Notes: a model not told the origin generated them from the letters alone. A DNA stretch of 64,000 nt from an uncultured Planctomycetaceae bacterium (GCA_964548115.1 CAZJPQ010000017.1:3399-67398), one strand, 5' to 3'. Counted from the stretch's first letter, positions 7,252 through 17,969 are shown. Made by a program: numbers and translations.

Positions 7252-8160
7252 TTAGTCTCTAGGGCGTTTTTGTGAAACATCTTCCAACATTTTTATTATA
7301 TTTTGAGATTCTGGCTGTTGTTTTAAATAAGCAGAGGAAGGTTCTTGAATTACCGCAATCAAAGTTGTTAAAGTTATTTGATCCCTTACATGTGCTGGAA
7401 CTTCGTGCTCACTTTTTCCTAATTCTTTATATGTCTTAAAAATATTCACTTTATGGGAAGAGAGTAAACGGGCATGGCGATTAGCATTGTATTGACGAGC
7501 AAAGAAAGCTACTAGAAAAAGTCCTACTGTTAAAACACTGAATCGAAAGATAATATAGATTGGAACTTTTTCCTTAGGTGTAAGGCTTCTTAATTCAAGT
7601 GGTAGATTTAGCGAATGACCAATGGACAAATAAATAAGAAGAAGGATAATAACCCCAAACAATAGAACAGAAGAAATCACCTCTGAGTGTTTAAGTTCTT
7701 TTGTGTGTTTTTCAAAAGCCGACCCAAATTCTCCCACGTTTAAGGCCACTGAAGCTTTTTCTTTTTCCTCAACGGCTTTTTCTTTTTCTTCAAAAATTTC
7801 TTCATTTTCTATCTTTGTGTCAACAAATTCTTCTGCTGCTTTTGCATGGTACCGAAGATGATGTGATTGTAGAGGATCTCTAAGAGACTTCCACTCGTCA
7901 GAACCTTTATCTACATTAAGAAGGCGTTTCACATGCTCTATAGTTAAACGTATACGCTCATATAAAAAATGGACTATTTCTTTACGATCCTTCTCTATAA
8001 AATTGCTTTTCTCTATTTTTTCGTAAAGGTTTTCATATCTTTCTATATTTTCCTCAACAATACCGTAGTGAAAATTTCCTCTTTCAAGTTTTTCAAATTC
8101 TCTTTTCAGCTCGTTTATCTTCTCTCTTACTTCGCTAACTTCTGCCATACTAAACTCCAC
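7252..8160 (-). CDS. Hypothetical coiled-coil protein with two TM helices
   Basis: 302-aa ORF with a Glu/Lys-rich N-terminal half and two hydrophobic segments. Visibly more AT-rich than its neighbours. Confidence 0.7.
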   Translation of the reverse strand: MEFSMAEVSEVREKINELKREFEKLERGNFHYGIVEENIERYENLYEKIEKSNFIEKDRKEIVHFLYERIRLTIEHVKRLLNVDKGSDEWKSLRDPLQSHHLRYHAKAAEEFVDTKIENEEIFEEKEKAVEEKEKASVALNVGEFGSAFEKHTKELKHSEVISSVLLFGVIILLLIYLSIGHSLNLPLELRSLTPKEKVPIYIIFRFSVLTVGLFLVAFFARQYNANRHARLLSSHKVNIFKTYKELGKSEHEVPAHVRDQITLTTLIAVIQEPSSAYLKQQPESQNIIKMLEDVSQKRPRD

Positions 8161-8334: not shown

Positions 8335-10170
8335 TCAACCACCCGACTTTTCGCCAGATTGAATACGCCAGAGTTCAGCATAGATGCCATTCTGAGCTAG
8401 GAGTTGCTCATGGGTTCCCTCTTCAGCGATAGCACCCTCTTTTAACACAATGATACGATCCGCATTACGAATCGTAGAAAGCCGATGGGCAATAATCAAA
8501 GCTGTCTTATCTTCTGTAAAACGATCAAGGCTCTCTTGAATTGCCCGCTCTGTCTCCGTATCAACGGAACTGGTAGCTTCGTCGAGCACAAAAACAGGGG
8601 CATCCTTTAAAATCGCACGGGCAAGACTAAGACGCTGGCGCTGTCCTCCCGACAACTTAATACCACGCTCCCCCACCATCGAATCATAGCCATCAGGTAA
8701 GGATCTTATAAAATCGTGGATTTGAGCGAGCTTTGCAGCCGCTGCTACTTCTTTCAAGTCAGCATCATCATTACCATAGGCAATATTTTCAAAGATGGTC
8801 CCGTGAAAGAGATAAACATCCTGACTCACTAAAGCGATATTTTTACGAAGGGTTTGCATACGTAGTTTTGAAAGCTCAATCCCATCAAGGGTGATACTTC
8901 CCGATTCAAGTTCATAAAGCCGTAAGAGCAGTTTAATCAGCGTTGATTTCCCCGCGCCAGTGACCCCCGCAATTCCTAATTTTTGTCCCTTTGGAATTTC
9001 AAAGCTCAAATTCTTAAAAATAGAACCACCGCGGGCATAACGAAAACACACCTCTTTGAACGCTAATGAGCCTTGAGCACGTTCAAGCGAAAGAGGATTT
9101 TCAGGATCGCGAATAGCAGTTGGAGTATCAAGCAAACCGAAGCTTCGACGAGCACTTGCACGTGCTCGCTCAAATTCATTAAGCACATCCCCAAGTCGTG
9201 TCAATGGCCAAAGAATCCGCTGGATCATCATGGAAAAAGTTACAAGGTGCCCAGCCGTAAAATCCTTTGGTCCTTCAGCGTCATTTAAAACCCAATAACT
9301 TCCGAGCAAAAGCACGCCTCCAAAACCAAGGGCTACAGCCATTCGTATCAAGGGGGTATAAAGCGCACTTAACTTAATAGCATGATGATTTGCATTCTTA
9401 TAATGCTCAGATGCCCGGCGCACTCGCTCAAGCTCAAAGTTTTCAGCAGTAAAGCTCTTAATCACAGGAATGCCAGCAATATTATTTTCAAGCCGGCTTG
9501 AAAGTTCACCAACGGCTTGCCGCACCGTTTGATAACGCGGCCCAAGCATACGCTGATAGAGCAAACTTCCCCAAATAATAATGGGAACAGGAGCCAAGCC
9601 TATCAAAGCCAACTGCCAGGAAATATCAAAAAGAATGGCACCAGCGAATAAGAAAAGCACCCCAAGCTGGAGTATCTCATTAAAGCCCGTATTCAAAAAG
9701 CGCTCAAGTTGATTGACATCATCGTTCAGCATTGCCATGGTTTCACCGAGCCGATGCTCCTCAAAAAAAGCGATCTCACGGCTTTGAAGCTGGCCATAGG
9801 CATCGACTCGCAGGTCATTTTGCAGATCCTGAGCAAGATTCATAAAGCCATACTGATACATCCACTGGAAAAGACTTTCTAAAGCAAAGATAGCGACTGC
9901 TAAAAAAGCCAGAAAAGCCGCCATCAGCCAATAGTCCTGGGTTCCAACAATGTTTGCAATCCAGGCAGGAGGCTTACGGCTGATGCAATCGATCACCCAG
10001 CCAACGAGAAGCGGAGGCATTAAATCAAGAACTTTGTTGAGCACGCTGGAAGTGGAAGCAAAAGCAAAACGTCCACGGTAAGGACGCAAATAGCTGAAAA
10101 GCCGCAGCATGGGCTTTTTTGGTTCTTGAATGAGCTGAGCGTAAGACTCCCTACTATGTGACTTGTTCAT
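8335..10170 (-). CDS. ABC transporter permease/ATP-binding protein (MsbA/MdlB-like half transporter)
   Basis: TM domain followed by Walker A 'GVTGAGKST', signature 'LSGGQRQR', Walker B 'VLDEATS' and H-loop 'IAHRLST'. Confidence 0.92.
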   Translation of the reverse strand: MNKSHSRESYAQLIQEPKKPMLRLFSYLRPYRGRFAFASTSSVLNKVLDLMPPLLVGWVIDCISRKPPAWIANIVGTQDYWLMAAFLAFLAVAIFALESLFQWMYQYGFMNLAQDLQNDLRVDAYGQLQSREIAFFEEHRLGETMAMLNDDVNQLERFLNTGFNEILQLGVLFLFAGAILFDISWQLALIGLAPVPIIIWGSLLYQRMLGPRYQTVRQAVGELSSRLENNIAGIPVIKSFTAENFELERVRRASEHYKNANHHAIKLSALYTPLIRMAVALGFGGVLLLGSYWVLNDAEGPKDFTAGHLVTFSMMIQRILWPLTRLGDVLNEFERARASARRSFGLLDTPTAIRDPENPLSLERAQGSLAFKEVCFRYARGGSIFKNLSFEIPKGQKLGIAGVTGAGKSTLIKLLLRLYELESGSITLDGIELSKLRMQTLRKNIALVSQDVYLFHGTIFENIAYGNDDADLKEVAAAAKLAQIHDFIRSLPDGYDSMVGERGIKLSGGQRQRLSLARAILKDAPVFVLDEATSSVDTETERAIQESLDRFTEDKTALIIAHRLSTIRNADRIIVLKEGAIAEEGTHEQLLAQNGIYAELWRIQSGEKSGG

Positions 10171-10614
10171 ATTTTCGATCCCAGGCTATAGAAAAATAAT
10201 CGTAAAGTATAAGCCCGGAAAGAGCAGATACCAGAGAATAACTGGTTAATAAAAAAGAGTCATGACGAGCTGAGAGGGAGATTTCCAGCAAAGTGAAATA
10301 TGGCTTTGGAAAAGTCTTGATAGCGGTTGTTGAAACGAAACTCAGGCTCCTTAAGAGTGACAATACAAATATTGTTTTATGCCTGCTGCGAAACTCCACA
10401 AGTTTTATTTTCGCATGACCAAAAACCTTCAACACGACTCATGCAACTTTTTTTCTTTCACACAATTCGTGACTGTTGTGATTGATTCTTAATGGAGAGC
10501 TTGGACTTTTCATGTCAACTCAACGAACCATGTCCCACAGAATGCAACGATTTGAAAACAAGTCGAGACGCTGCCCTCTGCTACTACCGATATCACTGAA
10601 AATAACTCTAAAAG

Positions 10615-10672
10615 TGCTACGATGTTGTCCCAAACAATGCTACGATGTTGCCATAAAAATGCTACGATGTTG
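10615..10672 (+). repeat. Three direct repeats of TGCTACGATGTTG
   Basis: Exact 13-mers at 10615-10627, 10638-10650 and 10660-10672 (spacing 23 and 22 bp). GCCATAAAAAT also occurs twice. Confidence 0.9.
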
Positions 10673-10804
10673 ATGCTAGCCATAAAAATTTTTATTTTCC
10701 ATTGCAACTATATATAGTATGATATAAAACACAAACAAACAGCATGTATTATCTCTGCCGTACTGCGCTTTTTATCACTTTCACCTAGTAAGGAAAATAG
10801 AATT

Positions 10805-11599
10805 ATGAAATCCAAAGAAGAAGTAGCAGAAATTCTTAACTCTATAATGGAAAATCAAGATATGGGATTTAAAGAAAAAGTAGAAAAAGGTTTCAACCTT
10901 CTATTCGAGGAAAATTTTCTTCCGAATCGACCAGCAGAAGTTTATGGCGCTTTTCCTCGAGCTCTTTTCAAAGAGCAAAAAAGAACACCAGAAGCAAGCG
11001 AGTATAGGGTTAGACTCATCTTCTCCTTAGGCAAACGGCCATCTATTCATCAAGAAAAATTACGAGGAGAGGCTTGTGCTGTCGATGGGGCACGTCATTC
11101 TCTCATCTCGCTTGACCACGGACTAGCAACACTTGCATATGCAAAATCAACGATAAGGGTTGACGGGGGTTACAGCTTAAAAGAGACTCTCTATCGGGCT
11201 AAGGAAGAACTTCATAATGCTGGCGCACCGACTGAAGGGCGCTGGATTGTTCTTCATTACAGTCATTACGGGGATCTGATGATGGCTGAAGAAAATTCTA
11301 AACTTTTTGATGACCCCAGAAACAGGTTTGAATCTTGTTCTCAAGGAACTATCTGCGGAACTCTTCTTGGTTTCAACGTATTCTTAAGTTCTCATATCAA
11401 AACAAGCCCTGATGACTTTCATCAAAACATCTTTGGTGTTACAAACGGCTCAAACAGCTCTCTTATTTATGGCCTTGATAAAAGAGAAGTTAACCTGATA
11501 AATAATTCTGGATTGGAAAAGATTCAACTAGAAATCCCTTATTGGGTAGAAAATCAACCAGCAAAATATCTTGGCATTATAAATACCATAAAGTCTTAA
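10805..11599 (+). CDS. Orphan protein resembling a degenerate phage major capsid protein (HK97 fold, T7/P22-coat-like)
   Basis: RBS AAGGA upstream. 'LYRAKEELHNAGAPTEGRWIVLHYSHYGDL...GTICGTLLGFNVFLSSHI' resembles the capsid motif 'a...L....vP..gR..vv.p..y..L...G.ig...Gf.v..Sn.l'. Confidence 0.55.
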   Translation: MKSKEEVAEILNSIMENQDMGFKEKVEKGFNLLFEENFLPNRPAEVYGAFPRALFKEQKRTPEASEYRVRLIFSLGKRPSIHQEKLRGEACAVDGARHSLISLDHGLATLAYAKSTIRVDGGYSLKETLYRAKEELHNAGAPTEGRWIVLHYSHYGDLMMAEENSKLFDDPRNRFESCSQGTICGTLLGFNVFLSSHIKTSPDDFHQNIFGVTNGSNSSLIYGLDKREVNLINNSGLEKIQLEIPYWVENQPAKYLGIINTIKS

Positions 11600-11613
11600 G
11601 TTCTCACTTCCTT

Positions 11614-13746
11614 TCATAACTCCCTGGCGAGAGCGCTCTGAAAAGCTTCCAGCTCAAATACAGGTTGTGCACAAACATGGTTCTCGCAAATATAAGCCGT
11701 GACCTTCTCTTTAATCATTGACTGATTCTTTGTGAAAGGAAGAAGCTCTTCAAGTTCTGATGCATTCTCTTCTGTCCGTAGAACAGCAAGCGCATGGGGA
11801 AAGAAGTTTAGACTTTGAAGATAATCAAGAAAGGGTTTGGCCTGAGCTTGCTCTCGACACGAAAGCACAACTTCCTGACTCGAAGCAAGAGCAAAATCAA
11901 GAGCACACAACGCCCGGGCATGTCCATCGGGCTGGGCCTGAAGCTGAGCCGAAAAATGAGAAAAAAGCCTTTCTGCATGTTCAAGCAGATCATCACGCCC
12001 AAGCAAACGCCCAAGCTTCAAAAGTATTTCAGCAGCAACGCTGTTGCCCGATGGTTCTGCTCCATCATAAAGATCTTTATGGCGCACAAGCAGCTCTTCT
12101 TCGCCTTGTCTGCTTAAAAAGAAAGCACCATTTTCCTGGTCAAGAAAAAGTTCAAGCATTTTTTCACATAAGCGAAGAGAAGCTTTTAAATAATCAAGCT
12201 TGAAGGTACTTTGGTAAAGCTCAAATAAACCATTGGCATAAAAGGCATAATCATCAAGGAAACCCTTAACGTCTGAACGCTTGCCCTTACAGTAAGAACG
12301 AAAAAGTTGATCTTCTTCACTCAGTAAATGTGATAGCACATAGTTCGCATTTTTTTCAGCAGCTTGAAGTAAAGACTGATCCTTTAAAACCCGAGCACCT
12401 AAAGCAAGTGCCTCAAGCATAAGGCCATTCCAGGATGTAAGCATTTTATCATCAAGACCTGGGCGCTGACGGTTCTCGCGCTGAGTAAAAAGCTTCTCCA
12501 AAAGTGGTTTGATTTTGTCCTGATAATCTTTTGGATTTTCTATTCCAAAAGCTTTGAGCTGAGCTCGTCCTTTTGCATGCAGAATATTTAAACCCGTCTC
12601 TTGCCCACTCGCTTCATCACGATAGTTTCCTTCTTCGCGCAGATCAAAAAGATCTACTATTATCTGAGCCTCTTCTTGACCCAAAATATCAAAAATTTCC
12701 TGATAGCCAAAAACATAGAAAGCCCCCTCTTCTTTGTTGCCCTCTTGATCTAGACTGTCGGCATCCTCAGCGGAAAAGAAACCGCCTTCGGGATTTTGGA
12801 GATCACGCAGCACATAACGAAAGATATCCCTTGCTTGCTCTGCAAAGAAAGTATCTTGGGTCATCTGGTAGGTCTCAAGGTATGCCCTGGCAAGTAGAGC
12901 TTGATCGTAAAGCATTTTTTCAAAATGGGACAGGCGCCACTCTTGATCCGTTGAATAACGATGAAAGCCCCCTCCAACGTGGTCATGGATTCCTCCCATG
13001 GCAATTTTCTCAAGGGAAAAAGTAACCATCTTCCGCGCTTGCTCGCTCCCACTTCGTGCATAATAACGAAGCAAAAAGTTATAAACATGAGGAGTTGGAA
13101 ATTTTAGACGCGAACCAAAACCACCATGGACCTGATCAAACCGGCCTGACAAGCGCTCAAAAGCCTTATCAAAAACACTTGTCGAAGGCAGGCTTCCTTC
13201 AGCTCCACTTTGAGAATGAGCAACGTCCCGAAGCTCTTTTGTGATCAAACTTGCATGCCCCATTAATCTTTCTCGATCATGCTGCCAAAATTCCTGGGTC
13301 TTTTTTAATAATGAAAAAAAACCAGGCCGTCCAAAACGCTCACGGGGTGGAAAATATGTTCCCAAAAAGAAAGGACGCCCCTTATGATCAAGCATAAGAG
13401 ACATCGGCCAACCACCATGCCCACTTGCCATCTGAAGAGCCTGCATATAAAGCGCATCAATATCTGGGCGCTCCTCTCGATCAACCTTGATGGCAATAAA
13501 ATGCTGATTAAGATATTCAGCAACTTCCTGATCTTCAAAGGATTCATGCTCCATCACATGACACCAGTGGCATGTGGAATAACCAATGCTCAAGAATATT
13601 GGCTTATCCTGAGATTTTGCGACTTCAAAAGCCTGATCACACCAAGGCCACCAATCAACGGGATTATGGGCATGCTGTAAAAGATAAGGACTTGTTTGAT
13701 CAATAAGTCGATTCGTAAAAGCCGGCTTCTTTGTCATTATTTTCAC
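11614..13746 (-). CDS. Thioredoxin domain-containing protein (YyaL/SPATA20 family)
   Basis: '[24 protein letters not shown]', '[16 protein letters not shown]', '[10 protein letters not shown]'. Confidence 0.93.
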
Positions 13747-16367: not shown

Positions 16368-16535
16368 CAGAAAAAGAATGGTGGACCCGAGGGGATTTGA
16401 ACCCGTTCAAGAGTCCGGGGGGACTCTTGGACCCCGCGAAGCGCACAGGGGTTCAAACAAACGTGCAAAGCCAAGCTCTACAACAAGAAACCAACCAACA
16501 GAAAAAGAATGGTGGACCCGAGGGGATTTGAACCC
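16368..16535. repeat. 37-bp direct repeat comprising the tRNA-Ala 3' end (att-like)
   Basis: CAGAAAAAGAATGGTGGACCCGAGGGGATTTGAACCC at 16368-16404 and 16499-16535. Confidence 0.9.
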
Positions 16536-16585
16536 CTGACCTTGTCATTGCGAACGACACGCTCTCCCAGCTGAGCTACGGGCCC
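16510..16585 (-). tRNA. tRNA-Ala (anticodon CGC)
   Basis: Reverse complement reads GGGCCCG TA GCTC AGCTGGGA GAGC G TGTCG TT CGC AA TGACA AGGTC AGGGG TTCAAAT CCCCT CGGGTCC A CCA. It is 76 nt, with the G3:U70 pair and an encoded CCA. Confidence 0.96.
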
Positions 16586-16662: not shown

Positions 16663-17814
16663 CTAAAAAGAATCCTCGTTTATGAGTTGCGCTCTTAAAG
16701 CTTCACTCAGTCTGTCCATCTCTTCAGGGTATTCCCGCAAGAACTCTAAAGCCTCGGGTTTGCTCTCACCAAGTACCAGGTCTTCCCATTCGAAATAACG
16801 ACATCCCCAGTCATCCTGCTGGCGCTGGACAACGCCATGCCGTAAACTCAAATCCAGGAGATTGCGAGCGCGATCAAATCCCTCTTCAAAAAGGAAAGCC
16901 AGTTCACAGCTTTGAAAAGGTTTCGCAAACTTATTTTTTGTTAAACGGGCTTTCAGCATATGCCCCACGACCTTCTTCTTTACTTGAAGAAACGGGCCTT
17001 TCCGAAGTTCCATCCGGGTATTCGCATAAAAGGACAAAGCTCGACCACCAGTCGTTGCTTCCCGAGGACCAAAGACATAATCAAAACGATGGCGCATCTG
17101 ATTGGTAAAAAGCAAACAGGTATTGTATTGACGCACCAGAGGCGCTATCCCTCGCAAAGCCTGGTTCATAAAGTGCGCATGGGCCCAGGCACGTTCGTCT
17201 TGTTCGAATGACTCTTGCTTTTCAAGCTGAGGAACAAGGCCTGCCACAGAGTCAATAACCATGATGTCAAAAGCTGAACTTCGAAGCAGGCCTCCAGCAA
17301 CCCGAAAAGCTTCTTCGCCATCATCGGGTTGGCAAAGGTAAAGCCGATTAAGATCGACTCCAAACTTACGGGCATAGTTGGCATCAAAAGCATGATCCGC
17401 ATCAATGAAAGCAGCAAAATTTTGATTTTTACGCTGAGCATCAGCAATGGCATAAAGACAAAGTGCTGTTTTTCCTGATTCTTCAGCACCATAAATTTCG
17501 TTGATTGAACCAGGAAAGAACCCTCCGCCCAGACAAAGATCAAGGGAAAGATCTCCGCTGGAAAAAGCGCTTTGTCTTAAGGCCTCTCCTTGTTTATCTT
17601 CTTCTTTTTCGCTCTGCCCCGGGCCTGTAAAACCTGTCGCCTGATTTTTATTGGTATGAATTTTTTGTAATACAGCTTCAAGGATTCGAGCGCGTTGGTT
17701 GGAATGATCCTTATTGTTATGCTCTGGAAGGCTTGCTCTCTGATCGTGGTTTGAAGCAGGCTTTTTGGATGAAGCTCTCTGAGAAGGAAAATCATCCTCG
17801 GGACGTGAAGGCAT
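16663..17814 (-). CDS. recA: Divergent RecA paralog with N-terminal extension
   Basis: 'SSGDLSLDLCLGGG', Walker A 'GAEESGKT', 'FIDADHAFD', 'QPDDGE', 'DSVAGLVP', 'FTNQMR', 'TTGGRALSFYA', 'KNK'. Likely start ATG 17814; the ORF track opens at 17886. Confidence 0.85.
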   Translation of the reverse strand: MPSRPEDDFPSQRASSKKPASNHDQRASLPEHNNKDHSNQRARILEAVLQKIHTNKNQATGFTGPGQSEKEEDKQGEALRQSAFSSGDLSLDLCLGGGFFPGSINEIYGAEESGKTALCLYAIADAQRKNQNFAAFIDADHAFDANYARKFGVDLNRLYLCQPDDGEEAFRVAGGLLRSSAFDIMVIDSVAGLVPQLEKQESFEQDERAWAHAHFMNQALRGIAPLVRQYNTCLLFTNQMRHRFDYVFGPREATTGGRALSFYANTRMELRKGPFLQVKKKVVGHMLKARLTKNKFAKPFQSCELAFLFEEGFDRARNLLDLSLRHGVVQRQQDDWGCRYFEWEDLVLGESKPEALEFLREYPEEMDRLSEALRAQLINEDSF

Positions 17815-17969
17815 AGGTTTTCTCAGCGTTTTCTTCAAGAGTTTAATAAACCATCCTAACACACTTGCTCGCTCTTTAGCAAGCAAGACAGCTGCTATCC
17901 ATCATTATTCAGAAGGTTCTTTCGGTCAATAGCTGGAAAGAAAATTCTCTCTGCTATTTCTGAGCATGT

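Follow-up and report, generated by a model that had tools for sequence, protein, structure and literature searches.

A lone capsid-derived gene among host genes of an uncultured Planctomycetaceae bacterium, possibly the stranded remnant of a phage-derived segment

A 64,000-nucleotide stretch of DNA from an uncultured Planctomycetaceae bacterium (GCA_964548115.1 CAZJPQ010000017.1:3399-67398, hereafter the window) carries, at 10805..11599 on the plus strand (coordinates include the stop codon), an intact open reading frame (ORF) of 264 aa with an ATG start, which derives from a major capsid protein (MCP) gene of the HK97 fold, of the P22-coat / N4-gp56 / T7-like kind. We draw this conclusion firmly, and the original prediction, made from the window alone, had likewise described an intact 264-aa ORF with a ribosome-binding site and called it a degenerate, orphan capsid-like gene; the ORF is present and the motif AAGGA lies 10 nt before the ATG (10790-10794, +), its resemblance to a ribosome-binding site being one of consensus only. 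The gene descends from the MCP gene of the tailed phage lineage that is also behind two other loci of the same genome, a phage-type module on contig C9 and a pair of terminase genes on contig C20, and its product retains residues 81-261, a part that runs from the spine helix as far as the C-terminus. The explanation that we favour, tentatively and with a little less than even confidence, is that it is a stranded deletion-fusion remnant of a phage capsid gene, without shell function.

Both of the capsid-like peptides quoted in the original prediction are present in the translation, and the likeness extends beyond chance by several measures. The capsid-homologous part (residues 81-261; 11045..11587, +) was aligned by hhalign to positions 103-297 of a 16-protein profile of the C9 MCP family with a probability of 97.4% (E 1.5e-11), while BLASTP aligned ORF residues 78-261 with residues 105-302 of the C9 MCP itself at 31% identity over 207 columns (E 3e-22). 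PHROG 267, ‘major head protein’, matched residues 126-204 (E 4.5e-5), the capsid-family hidden Markov model (HMM) matched positions 118-244 (E 1.2e-16), and the motifs AP.EGR and G..GF.V are common to the orphan ORF and the family. Over 176 well-aligned columns 56 are identical to the C9 MCP (32%), and the predicted isoelectric points are 6.3 for the orphan product and 4.4 for the C9 MCP. Scans with Pfam and NCBIfam gave no family for the orphan ORF at E values up to 10, neither capsid nor encapsulin, and a search of the PDB with its sequence returned a single match at E 0.2, which is meaningless.

An AlphaFold model of the protein was of low confidence (predicted local distance difference test, pLDDT, 50.0; predicted template modelling score, pTM, 0.50) and was built on an alignment itself made of capsid proteins; it has a 30-residue spine-like helix (82-111) followed by a beta-rich, A-domain-like core and C-terminal strands, with short strands also at residues 45-47 and 66-74, where pLDDT is below 50. 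Foldseek searches with this model gave 15 matches at E <=0.001, and all the matches listed were phage capsids or encapsulins, as the original prediction would have it, the top match being 9m66 (E 3.5e-5, template modelling score 0.36) and the encapsulin 8t6r being matched at E 9e-5. A second structure aligner (VIA) gave Z scores of up to 9.5 (8h89, 9d7z, 9eg4), with cyanophage A4 at Z 9.1, phage N4 at Z 8.9 and the encapsulin 9bje at Z 8.6, and its trimmed alignments cover model residues 113-264; by the aligner’s own warning, best Z scores of 7-8 are common for models that match nothing. Folding from the single sequence was poor (pLDDT 41.7). Because the model is of low confidence, its alignment was made of capsids and Z scores of 7-8 are common, the fold evidence backs the sequence evidence and cannot stand alone.

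In the HK97 fold the N-arm and E-loop precede the spine helix, and the N-arm, E-loop and P-domain make the subunit-subunit and capsomer-capsomer contacts. Such contacts are described likewise for the phi12 capsid protein and its homolog Ccm (PMC8569155). The place expected for N-arm and E-loop is occupied in the orphan protein by residues 1-80 (10805..11044, +), an N-terminal part for which no relative was detected: it falls outside the hhalign alignment to the family profile, residues 1-95 matched no family in PHROGs, BLASTP gave no alignment of the N-terminus with either the C9 scaffold-position protein or the N-terminus of the C9 MCP, and a search with the N-terminal region in a collection of 5.8 billion clusters returned the ORF itself only, among 4 candidates. 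The supposition that the N-arm/E-loop region had been replaced was thus borne out, and family positions 1-102, a third of the full MCP architecture, have no counterpart in the ORF. Two other accounts of this N-terminus were tried and rejected. A frameshift hiding the N-terminal capsid third left no remnant in any frame, a sub-profile of family positions 1-102 finding nothing in the six frames of 9900-11900, and a fusion with the scaffold gene was dismissed, residues 1-95 being unlike the C9 scaffold-position protein.

A second loss lies near the C-terminus, at a junction around residues 230-235 (11492..11509, +), where a 17-column gap falls between N234 and S235; the roughly 17 family residues missing there are present in 16/16 family members, and the hhalign gaps fall at the same spot. 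Among the 23 family-invariant positions of the aligned part, 11 are kept and 12 changed, and retention was not significantly enriched at the most deeply conserved sites (11 kept and 12 lost, against 7 kept and 13 lost; Fisher p 0.54). With no recognisable N-terminal third, a C-terminal deletion and 11 of 23 invariants remaining, the product is therefore not a normal shell protein or an encapsulin, and self-assembly is disfavoured because the N-arm, the E-loop and part of the P-domain are lost. Nor does the gene stand in the head-module setting of portal, scaffold and capsid.

These losses bear most directly on the suggestion, made in the original prediction, of an encapsulin-like shell. That the protein builds a shell by itself, as a non-canonical encapsulin or as a capsid that is still functional, is in our judgement very improbable: the length of 264 aa is encapsulin-like and encapsulins are among the fold matches of the predicted model (8t6r and 9bje), but these matches are no better than those to phage capsids and come from the same low-confidence model, the N-terminal third shows no kinship with any capsid, only half of the invariants survive, 17 residues are deleted, and neither family library gave a match. 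Encapsulin cargo types include peroxidases, ferritin-like proteins and desulfurases, and there is no adjacent cargo-type gene here, the neighbours being an ABC transporter gene and a YyaL gene on the opposite strand.

The only relative of the orphan ORF that could be detected is the C9 MCP of the same genome, encoded by a 305-aa ORF (G000 contig C9:40324-41241; P0002). It matches PHROG 267 at E 4.9e-22, lies above the Pfam cut-offs for PF25209 Phage_capsid_4 (34.7 bits) and PF11651 P22_CoatProtein (31.9 bits), and forms a family with 15 relatives (P0003-P0017; PF25209 / PF19821) at 43-68% identity, one of which is named ‘N4-gp56 family major capsid protein’ at its source. The 16-protein family profile matches the solved capsids 9jwb, 8i4l, 8e16 and 4bml, and against phage records the C9 MCP itself has 12 matches at 24-30% identity. 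Loci of the family numbered none in genome contigs, one in viral contigs and two in metagenome contigs (a 7,015-base contig that has the viral contig’s match coordinates, and another contig of 1.5 kb). The C9 MCP gene sits in a portal-scaffold-MCP-tail module of about 15 kb (contig C9:38205-53069; L003 8206-20000 and L020 887-5067), all ORFs of which are intact: upstream are a portal gene (PHROG 64; SPP1_portal 28.9 bits) and then a 209-aa scaffold-position gene, and downstream are some 12 kb of same-strand ORFs, one with YadA-head repeats. Host genes border the module (asd and DUF6941 at one end, UbiD at the other), and neither a terminase nor an integrase adjoins it. A comparison of gene neighbourhoods, proposed with the original prediction, could thus be made for this relative, which stands in a phage-type module between host genes, and not for orthologs of the orphan gene, of which none was found.

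A terminase pair in the unusual order TerL then TerS lies on contig C20 (L019 3073-5298), beside a host aldehyde dehydrogenase gene; its TerL matches PHROG 2 (E 3.5e-36), the small terminase behind it is of the Sf6 type (PF20901, E 1.6e-31), and host genes come next. The lineage is tied together by the viral contig L004, in which TerL, portal, scaffold-position gene and MCP stand in a row, TerL just upstream of the portal: set against this genome, its TerL agrees at 50% with that of C20, and its portal and MCP at 33% and 50% with those of C9. The C20 TerL groups with L004 in a tree (SH-aLRT, a branch support test, 100). The genome has no more than two tyrosine recombinases, and these lie on contigs C12 and C4, away from these loci. 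Pfam terminase and portal models gave 0 matches in the genome, and the same models miss the divergent TerL and portal known to be there; the assembly is a draft of 53 contigs in which many of the C9 and C20 ORFs are without annotation. Genes of one phage lineage are therefore found in at least two host-flanked loci, C9 and C20, and the orphan capsid-like gene is a third, a scatter that fits a rearranged, decaying prophage and, less likely, a multi-locus particle system kept by the host.

The latter would resemble a gene transfer agent (GTA), in which the orphan protein would join the C9 module and the C20 terminases as a minor shell subunit or a specialised one, located perhaps at the vertices. 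We hold this improbable. It would account for phage-type genes of the same lineage in at least three host-flanked loci, for the lack of a phage-type integrase near them and for the intact state of all C9 module ORFs, and a multi-locus GTA ‘genome’ has reportedly been described in one study. On the other side, the capsid family was found in 0/60 relatives (drawn from the same family, order, class and phylum), so that vertical inheritance is not indicated; GC content at third codon positions (GC3) is phage-like in the C9 genes; and the scatter is accounted for just as well by a simple prophage that has rearranged or is decaying. The orphan protein is also without elements that every shell subunit uses, judging by general knowledge of the HK97 fold and by what is described for Ccm (PMC8569155).

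The orphan ORF was itself found in 0/60 of the same relatives. A phmmer search of 1.84 billion cluster representatives returned the ORF only, as did a word-indexed homolog search among 311 word-sharing candidates; against 50,697 phage records the best match had an E of 0.9, against plasmids there was one match at E 1, and viral contigs gave none. A 50-residue match to a Rhizobiales contig, from a scan of all species-representative genomes, was discarded as chance, being out of frame with the gene there. The nearest relative genome belongs to the same family only and its YyaL is 49% identical; YyaL orthologs occur in 12/12 relatives examined for them at 44-49% identity, and apart from YyaL itself the 13 window genes were absent from the surroundings of the three YyaL loci that were inspected, synteny being uninformative at this distance.

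A first tree comprised 21 rows: three phage outgroups, one viral contig, the 16 family proteins and the ORF. It places the orphan ORF within the C9 MCP subclade, on a terminal branch of length 3.93 compared with 0.24. In a second tree of 20 rows, from which the very long A-4L row was dropped and in which the ORF was trimmed to residues 81-264, it becomes the sister of the C9 MCP, weakly supported (72/49), its branch measuring 2.88 compared with 0.11. An approximately unbiased (AU) test did not reject a position of the ORF outside the capsid family (p 0.33). On these trees the gene may be either a fast-evolving duplicate of the resident capsid gene or an arrival from a separate, more distant phage.

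The reading frame was examined for signs of coding. It has 0 in-frame stops, while the other five frames have 17, 20, 9, 20 and 18, and at the local off-frame stop frequency of 0.055 the chance of an open frame would be 0.011 for 80 codons and 3.4e-7 for 264. GC contents at the three codon positions are 0.52/0.36/0.30 for the whole ORF and 0.53/0.33/0.28, which is coding-like, for residues 1-80, so that GC1 > GC2 > GC3 holds in both the N-terminal and the homologous part. We conclude that the ORF is a genuine coding sequence, or was one until very recently. Measured against 1163 host ORFs of >=300 aa, whose GC3 averages 0.372, its value of 0.30 ranks at the 2nd percentile. Most C9 module genes have similar values (0.28-0.34), unlike the C20 terminases, which are host-like at 0.42 and 0.37. 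This phage-like composition, without amelioration, suggests that the orphan gene arrived fairly recently.

A remnant is favoured because the gene was found in 0/60 relatives and has no ortholog, its GC3 is unameliorated, genes of the lineage are scattered in the genome and promoter-like sites near it are not above chance (2 found, 3.8 expected; a terminator scan gave the same outcome). On this explanation the gene would be the last piece of a vanished phage-derived segment: a deletion would have brought the last two-thirds of the capsid gene, its 3' part, in frame behind the beginning of a different phage gene, after which the remainder of the phage element would have been lost. The fused product would be incapable of shell formation and is without a demonstrated role in the host. 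The frame still being open, the stranding would be recent on the time scale of point mutation, and the divergence would have been acquired earlier, under selection, in the phage world. The original prediction had preferred a host-domesticated capsid to a prophage remnant. Its degenerate, orphan, capsid-derived gene stands, but domestication finds no support, with no ortholog in any collection searched and GC3 still phage-like. The MCP nearest to it belongs to a phage-derived module of this genome, and an origin as a remnant is the simplest explanation.

Several observations pull the other way. The frame is fully open, including the 80 N-terminal codons that match nothing. In a simulated neutral walk (substitution-only, on synthetic coding sequences, taken down to 32% identity or about 0.6 substitutions per site) only 3/2000 replicates of 181 codons and 0/2000 of 264 codons stayed free of stops, and indels, which were not part of the walk, would lower the fraction further; the frame was therefore held open by selection while almost all of the divergence took place. 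This selection may have acted either in a phage or in this host. Moreover, neither tblastn with the C9 products nor the sub-profile scan revealed debris of other phage genes beside the orphan ORF, and a clean lone survivor is the outcome expected of selection on the gene. Finally, if the weakly placed sister relationship to the C9 MCP is right, a burst of change after duplication may be indicated, which would fit a new role better than a fresh relic.

Such a role could be interference with capsid assembly, by a ‘poison subunit’ or decoy that would be a chromosomal analogue, encoded by one gene, of Ccm from SaPIbov5. We regard this as possible, though less likely than a remnant. The A-domain core around the capsomer axis would have been kept for it while the N-arm/E-loop and part of the P-domain, which tie subunits and capsomers together, are gone. 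Perhaps the protein would then enter or bind capsomers of L004-like phages, including those of the resident C9 lineage, and stall or misdirect shell growth, protecting the population. The open frame held through heavy divergence, the clean single survivor with its ribosome-binding-site-like motif and the best tree, in which the gene is the sister of the resident MCP on a very long branch, all speak for it, and the retained region is the part that the predicted model aligns to capsid A/P cores. A study besides those cited here reportedly deals with defence by a block of virion assembly. Precedents for such defence are also found in two papers (PMC8569155, PMC11364771), and the 31-32% identity to the resident MCP is similar to the 24% between Ccm and its target (PMC8569155).

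Against interference, conservation is not demonstrable as there are no orthologs, PADLOC matched the orphan ORF to no known defence model, and the gene lies outside any satellite or defence island. Ccm retains a complete HK97 fold with N-arm and E-loop, which the orphan protein does not; the change of 12/23 invariant positions may have abolished binding too; and the model that aligns to capsid cores has a pLDDT of only 50.

A more specific form of the idea, which we think unlikely, is a single-gene, chromosomal anti-phage ‘capsomer poison’ composed of the A-domain core, the spine helix and a new helical N-terminus. It would, on this rather speculative account, dock in L004-like capsomers without the N-arm, E-loop and P-domain contacts and cap or derail their assembly. 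It might even be a minimal, non-satellite counterpart of Ccm, possibly derived from a duplicated resident capsid gene by rapid change. A literature search at the level of listings and abstracts, which is not proof of absence, found satellite and prophage cases and no chromosomal stand-alone capsid decoy. The probability that is left after the readings named here goes to other readings.

Around the orphan gene the window is of host type. The neighbours are as the original prediction named them and are confirmed by Pfam: upstream is an ABC transporter gene (8335-10170, -; PF00664 + PF00005) and downstream a gene for a YyaL/DUF255-type thioredoxin-domain protein (11614-13746, -; PF03190), the stop codon of which, in convergent orientation, is 14 nt from the end of the orphan ORF. 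Both are on the strand opposite to it and neither is cargo-type. A Pfam scan of 12 ORFs between 110 and 21505 (the family-library scan of the window covered ORFs up to 21.8 kb only) gave host-type families or none, and no phage family: TetR, DUF2339, an MFS-acyltransferase-AMP-binding fusion, ABC, YyaL, HDOD, PurM-like, RecA, zinc dehydrogenase and ribonucleotide reductase small chain, with 2 ORFs unmatched. When the products of 20 C9-region ORFs were searched by tblastn against the whole genome, contig C17, to which the window belongs, was matched by the MCP alone, which is also the only one of the 20 to have a second copy in the genome. Together with the position of the recombinases on other contigs, this upholds, as far as these searches reach, the claim that the window holds no phage genes around the orphan. 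The sole tRNA of the window is a tRNA-Ala (16510-16585), and Rfam gave no match in 9900-11900.

Three direct repeats with the core TGCTACGATGTTG at a spacing of 22-23 bp (10610..10677, no strand) lie 130-190 bp upstream of the orphan ORF, in the 634 bp that separate it from the divergently oriented ABC transporter gene. This 12-nt core has 3 copies in the 2.85-Mb genome, all of them at 10610-10677, and the triple repeat is possibly a candidate binding array for a regulator. An exact 13-nt direct repeat, TCTTAAGTTCTCA, occurs at 11382-11394 inside the ORF and at 11594-11606 across its stop codon, 212 nt apart, and may be due to chance or be the trace of a recombination joint.

Two further genes of the window were noted. 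One gene away from the orphan ORF, a foreign-looking ORF of 302 aa (7252-8160, -) has a very low GC3 of 0.24 and no Pfam or PHROG family, its PADLOC matches being weak ones to DrmE models only (E 9e-4, 15.7 bits). In the RecA protein (16663-17886, -; 407 aa) the Pfam RecA match begins at residue 103, and the protein thus has an N-terminal extension of about 100 residues in which charged and polar residues are abundant.

The comparison with related genomes also brought up a TerL of another kind. An intact TerL-like gene (PF03237), mostly one match per genome, was found in 25/29 other genomes of the same class and in 0/31 genomes of other classes in the phylum. Three of its loci were inspected, in relatives G005 (L033 9023-10309, -), G007 (L034 9166-10440, +) and G021 (L035 9528-10961, +); they belong to three genera and share the host neighbours arginase, adenylate/guanylate cyclase (Guanylate_cyc) and a protein of 470-480 aa, with no C9-type head or tail gene within 10 kb. 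The C20 TerL is outside the clade of these lone genes, which are candidates for a class-wide domesticated TerL. The DUF6941 protein that adjoins the C9 portal (PF22091, E 8e-21; L003 7162-7587, -) is weakly matched by a paralog on contig C39 and, likewise weakly, by a homolog (L035 12159-12563, +) located 1.2 kb from the lone TerL of G021; a literature search for DUF6941 found nothing. The lone TerL is possibly of more interest than the orphan capsid gene itself.

As no more than a remnant the orphan gene would be an unremarkable product of decaying prophages, its main value lying in annotation: a hypothetical protein becomes a capsid-derived fragment and a pointer to scattered phage genes in this genome. 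Were selection maintaining it, the gene would be a further example of a shortened capsid homolog put to use outside virions and would offer a simple, single-gene model of defence by assembly interference.

Comparison with known systems places the orphan protein closest to the C9 MCP family, positions 103-297 of which correspond to ORF residues 81-261 at 31-32% identity; it differs in that the first 102 positions and about 17 residues of the C-terminal region are absent, and in that the C9 MCP reaches Pfam capsid models and sits in a head module, which the orphan does neither. With encapsulins it shares a similar size and, in the low-confidence model, a predicted HK97-type fold, but it matches no encapsulin family model and is without an adjacent cargo gene and recognisable shell-forming N-terminal elements. 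GTAs have structural genes that are inherited vertically, whereas here the capsid family was found in 0/60 relatives; GTAs may also have head-tail and packaging genes split over several loci and lack those for replication or lysogeny, and here C9 and C20 are host-flanked and apart with no integrase near, as far as the draft of 53 contigs goes. Genes of mobile genetic elements recruited by hosts, reportedly the subject of a review, are defined by vertical inheritance under purifying selection, and the orphan gene is in none of the 60 relatives.

Ccm of SaPIbov5 is a capsid-protein homolog of a phage satellite that redirects the capsid assembly of the helper phage, is 24% identical to its target and cannot form capsids alone (PMC8569155). 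Its structure (7rwz) appears at rank 48 of the Foldseek list for the orphan model. The orphan protein and Ccm are both divergent MCP homologs with genes that lie elsewhere than in the phage of similar capsid; the orphan protein is a homolog of the capsid of a phage-type module in its own genome. Ccm has N-arm, E-loop, P domain and A domain in addition to an N-terminal delta domain, is encoded on a mobile island and has a demonstrated function (PMC8569155), whereas the orphan protein has an unrelated N-terminal third and a C-terminal deletion, and its gene has host genes on both sides and no island. In defective-prophage remnants there is likewise a single structural gene among host genes, with related phage genes scattered in the genome.

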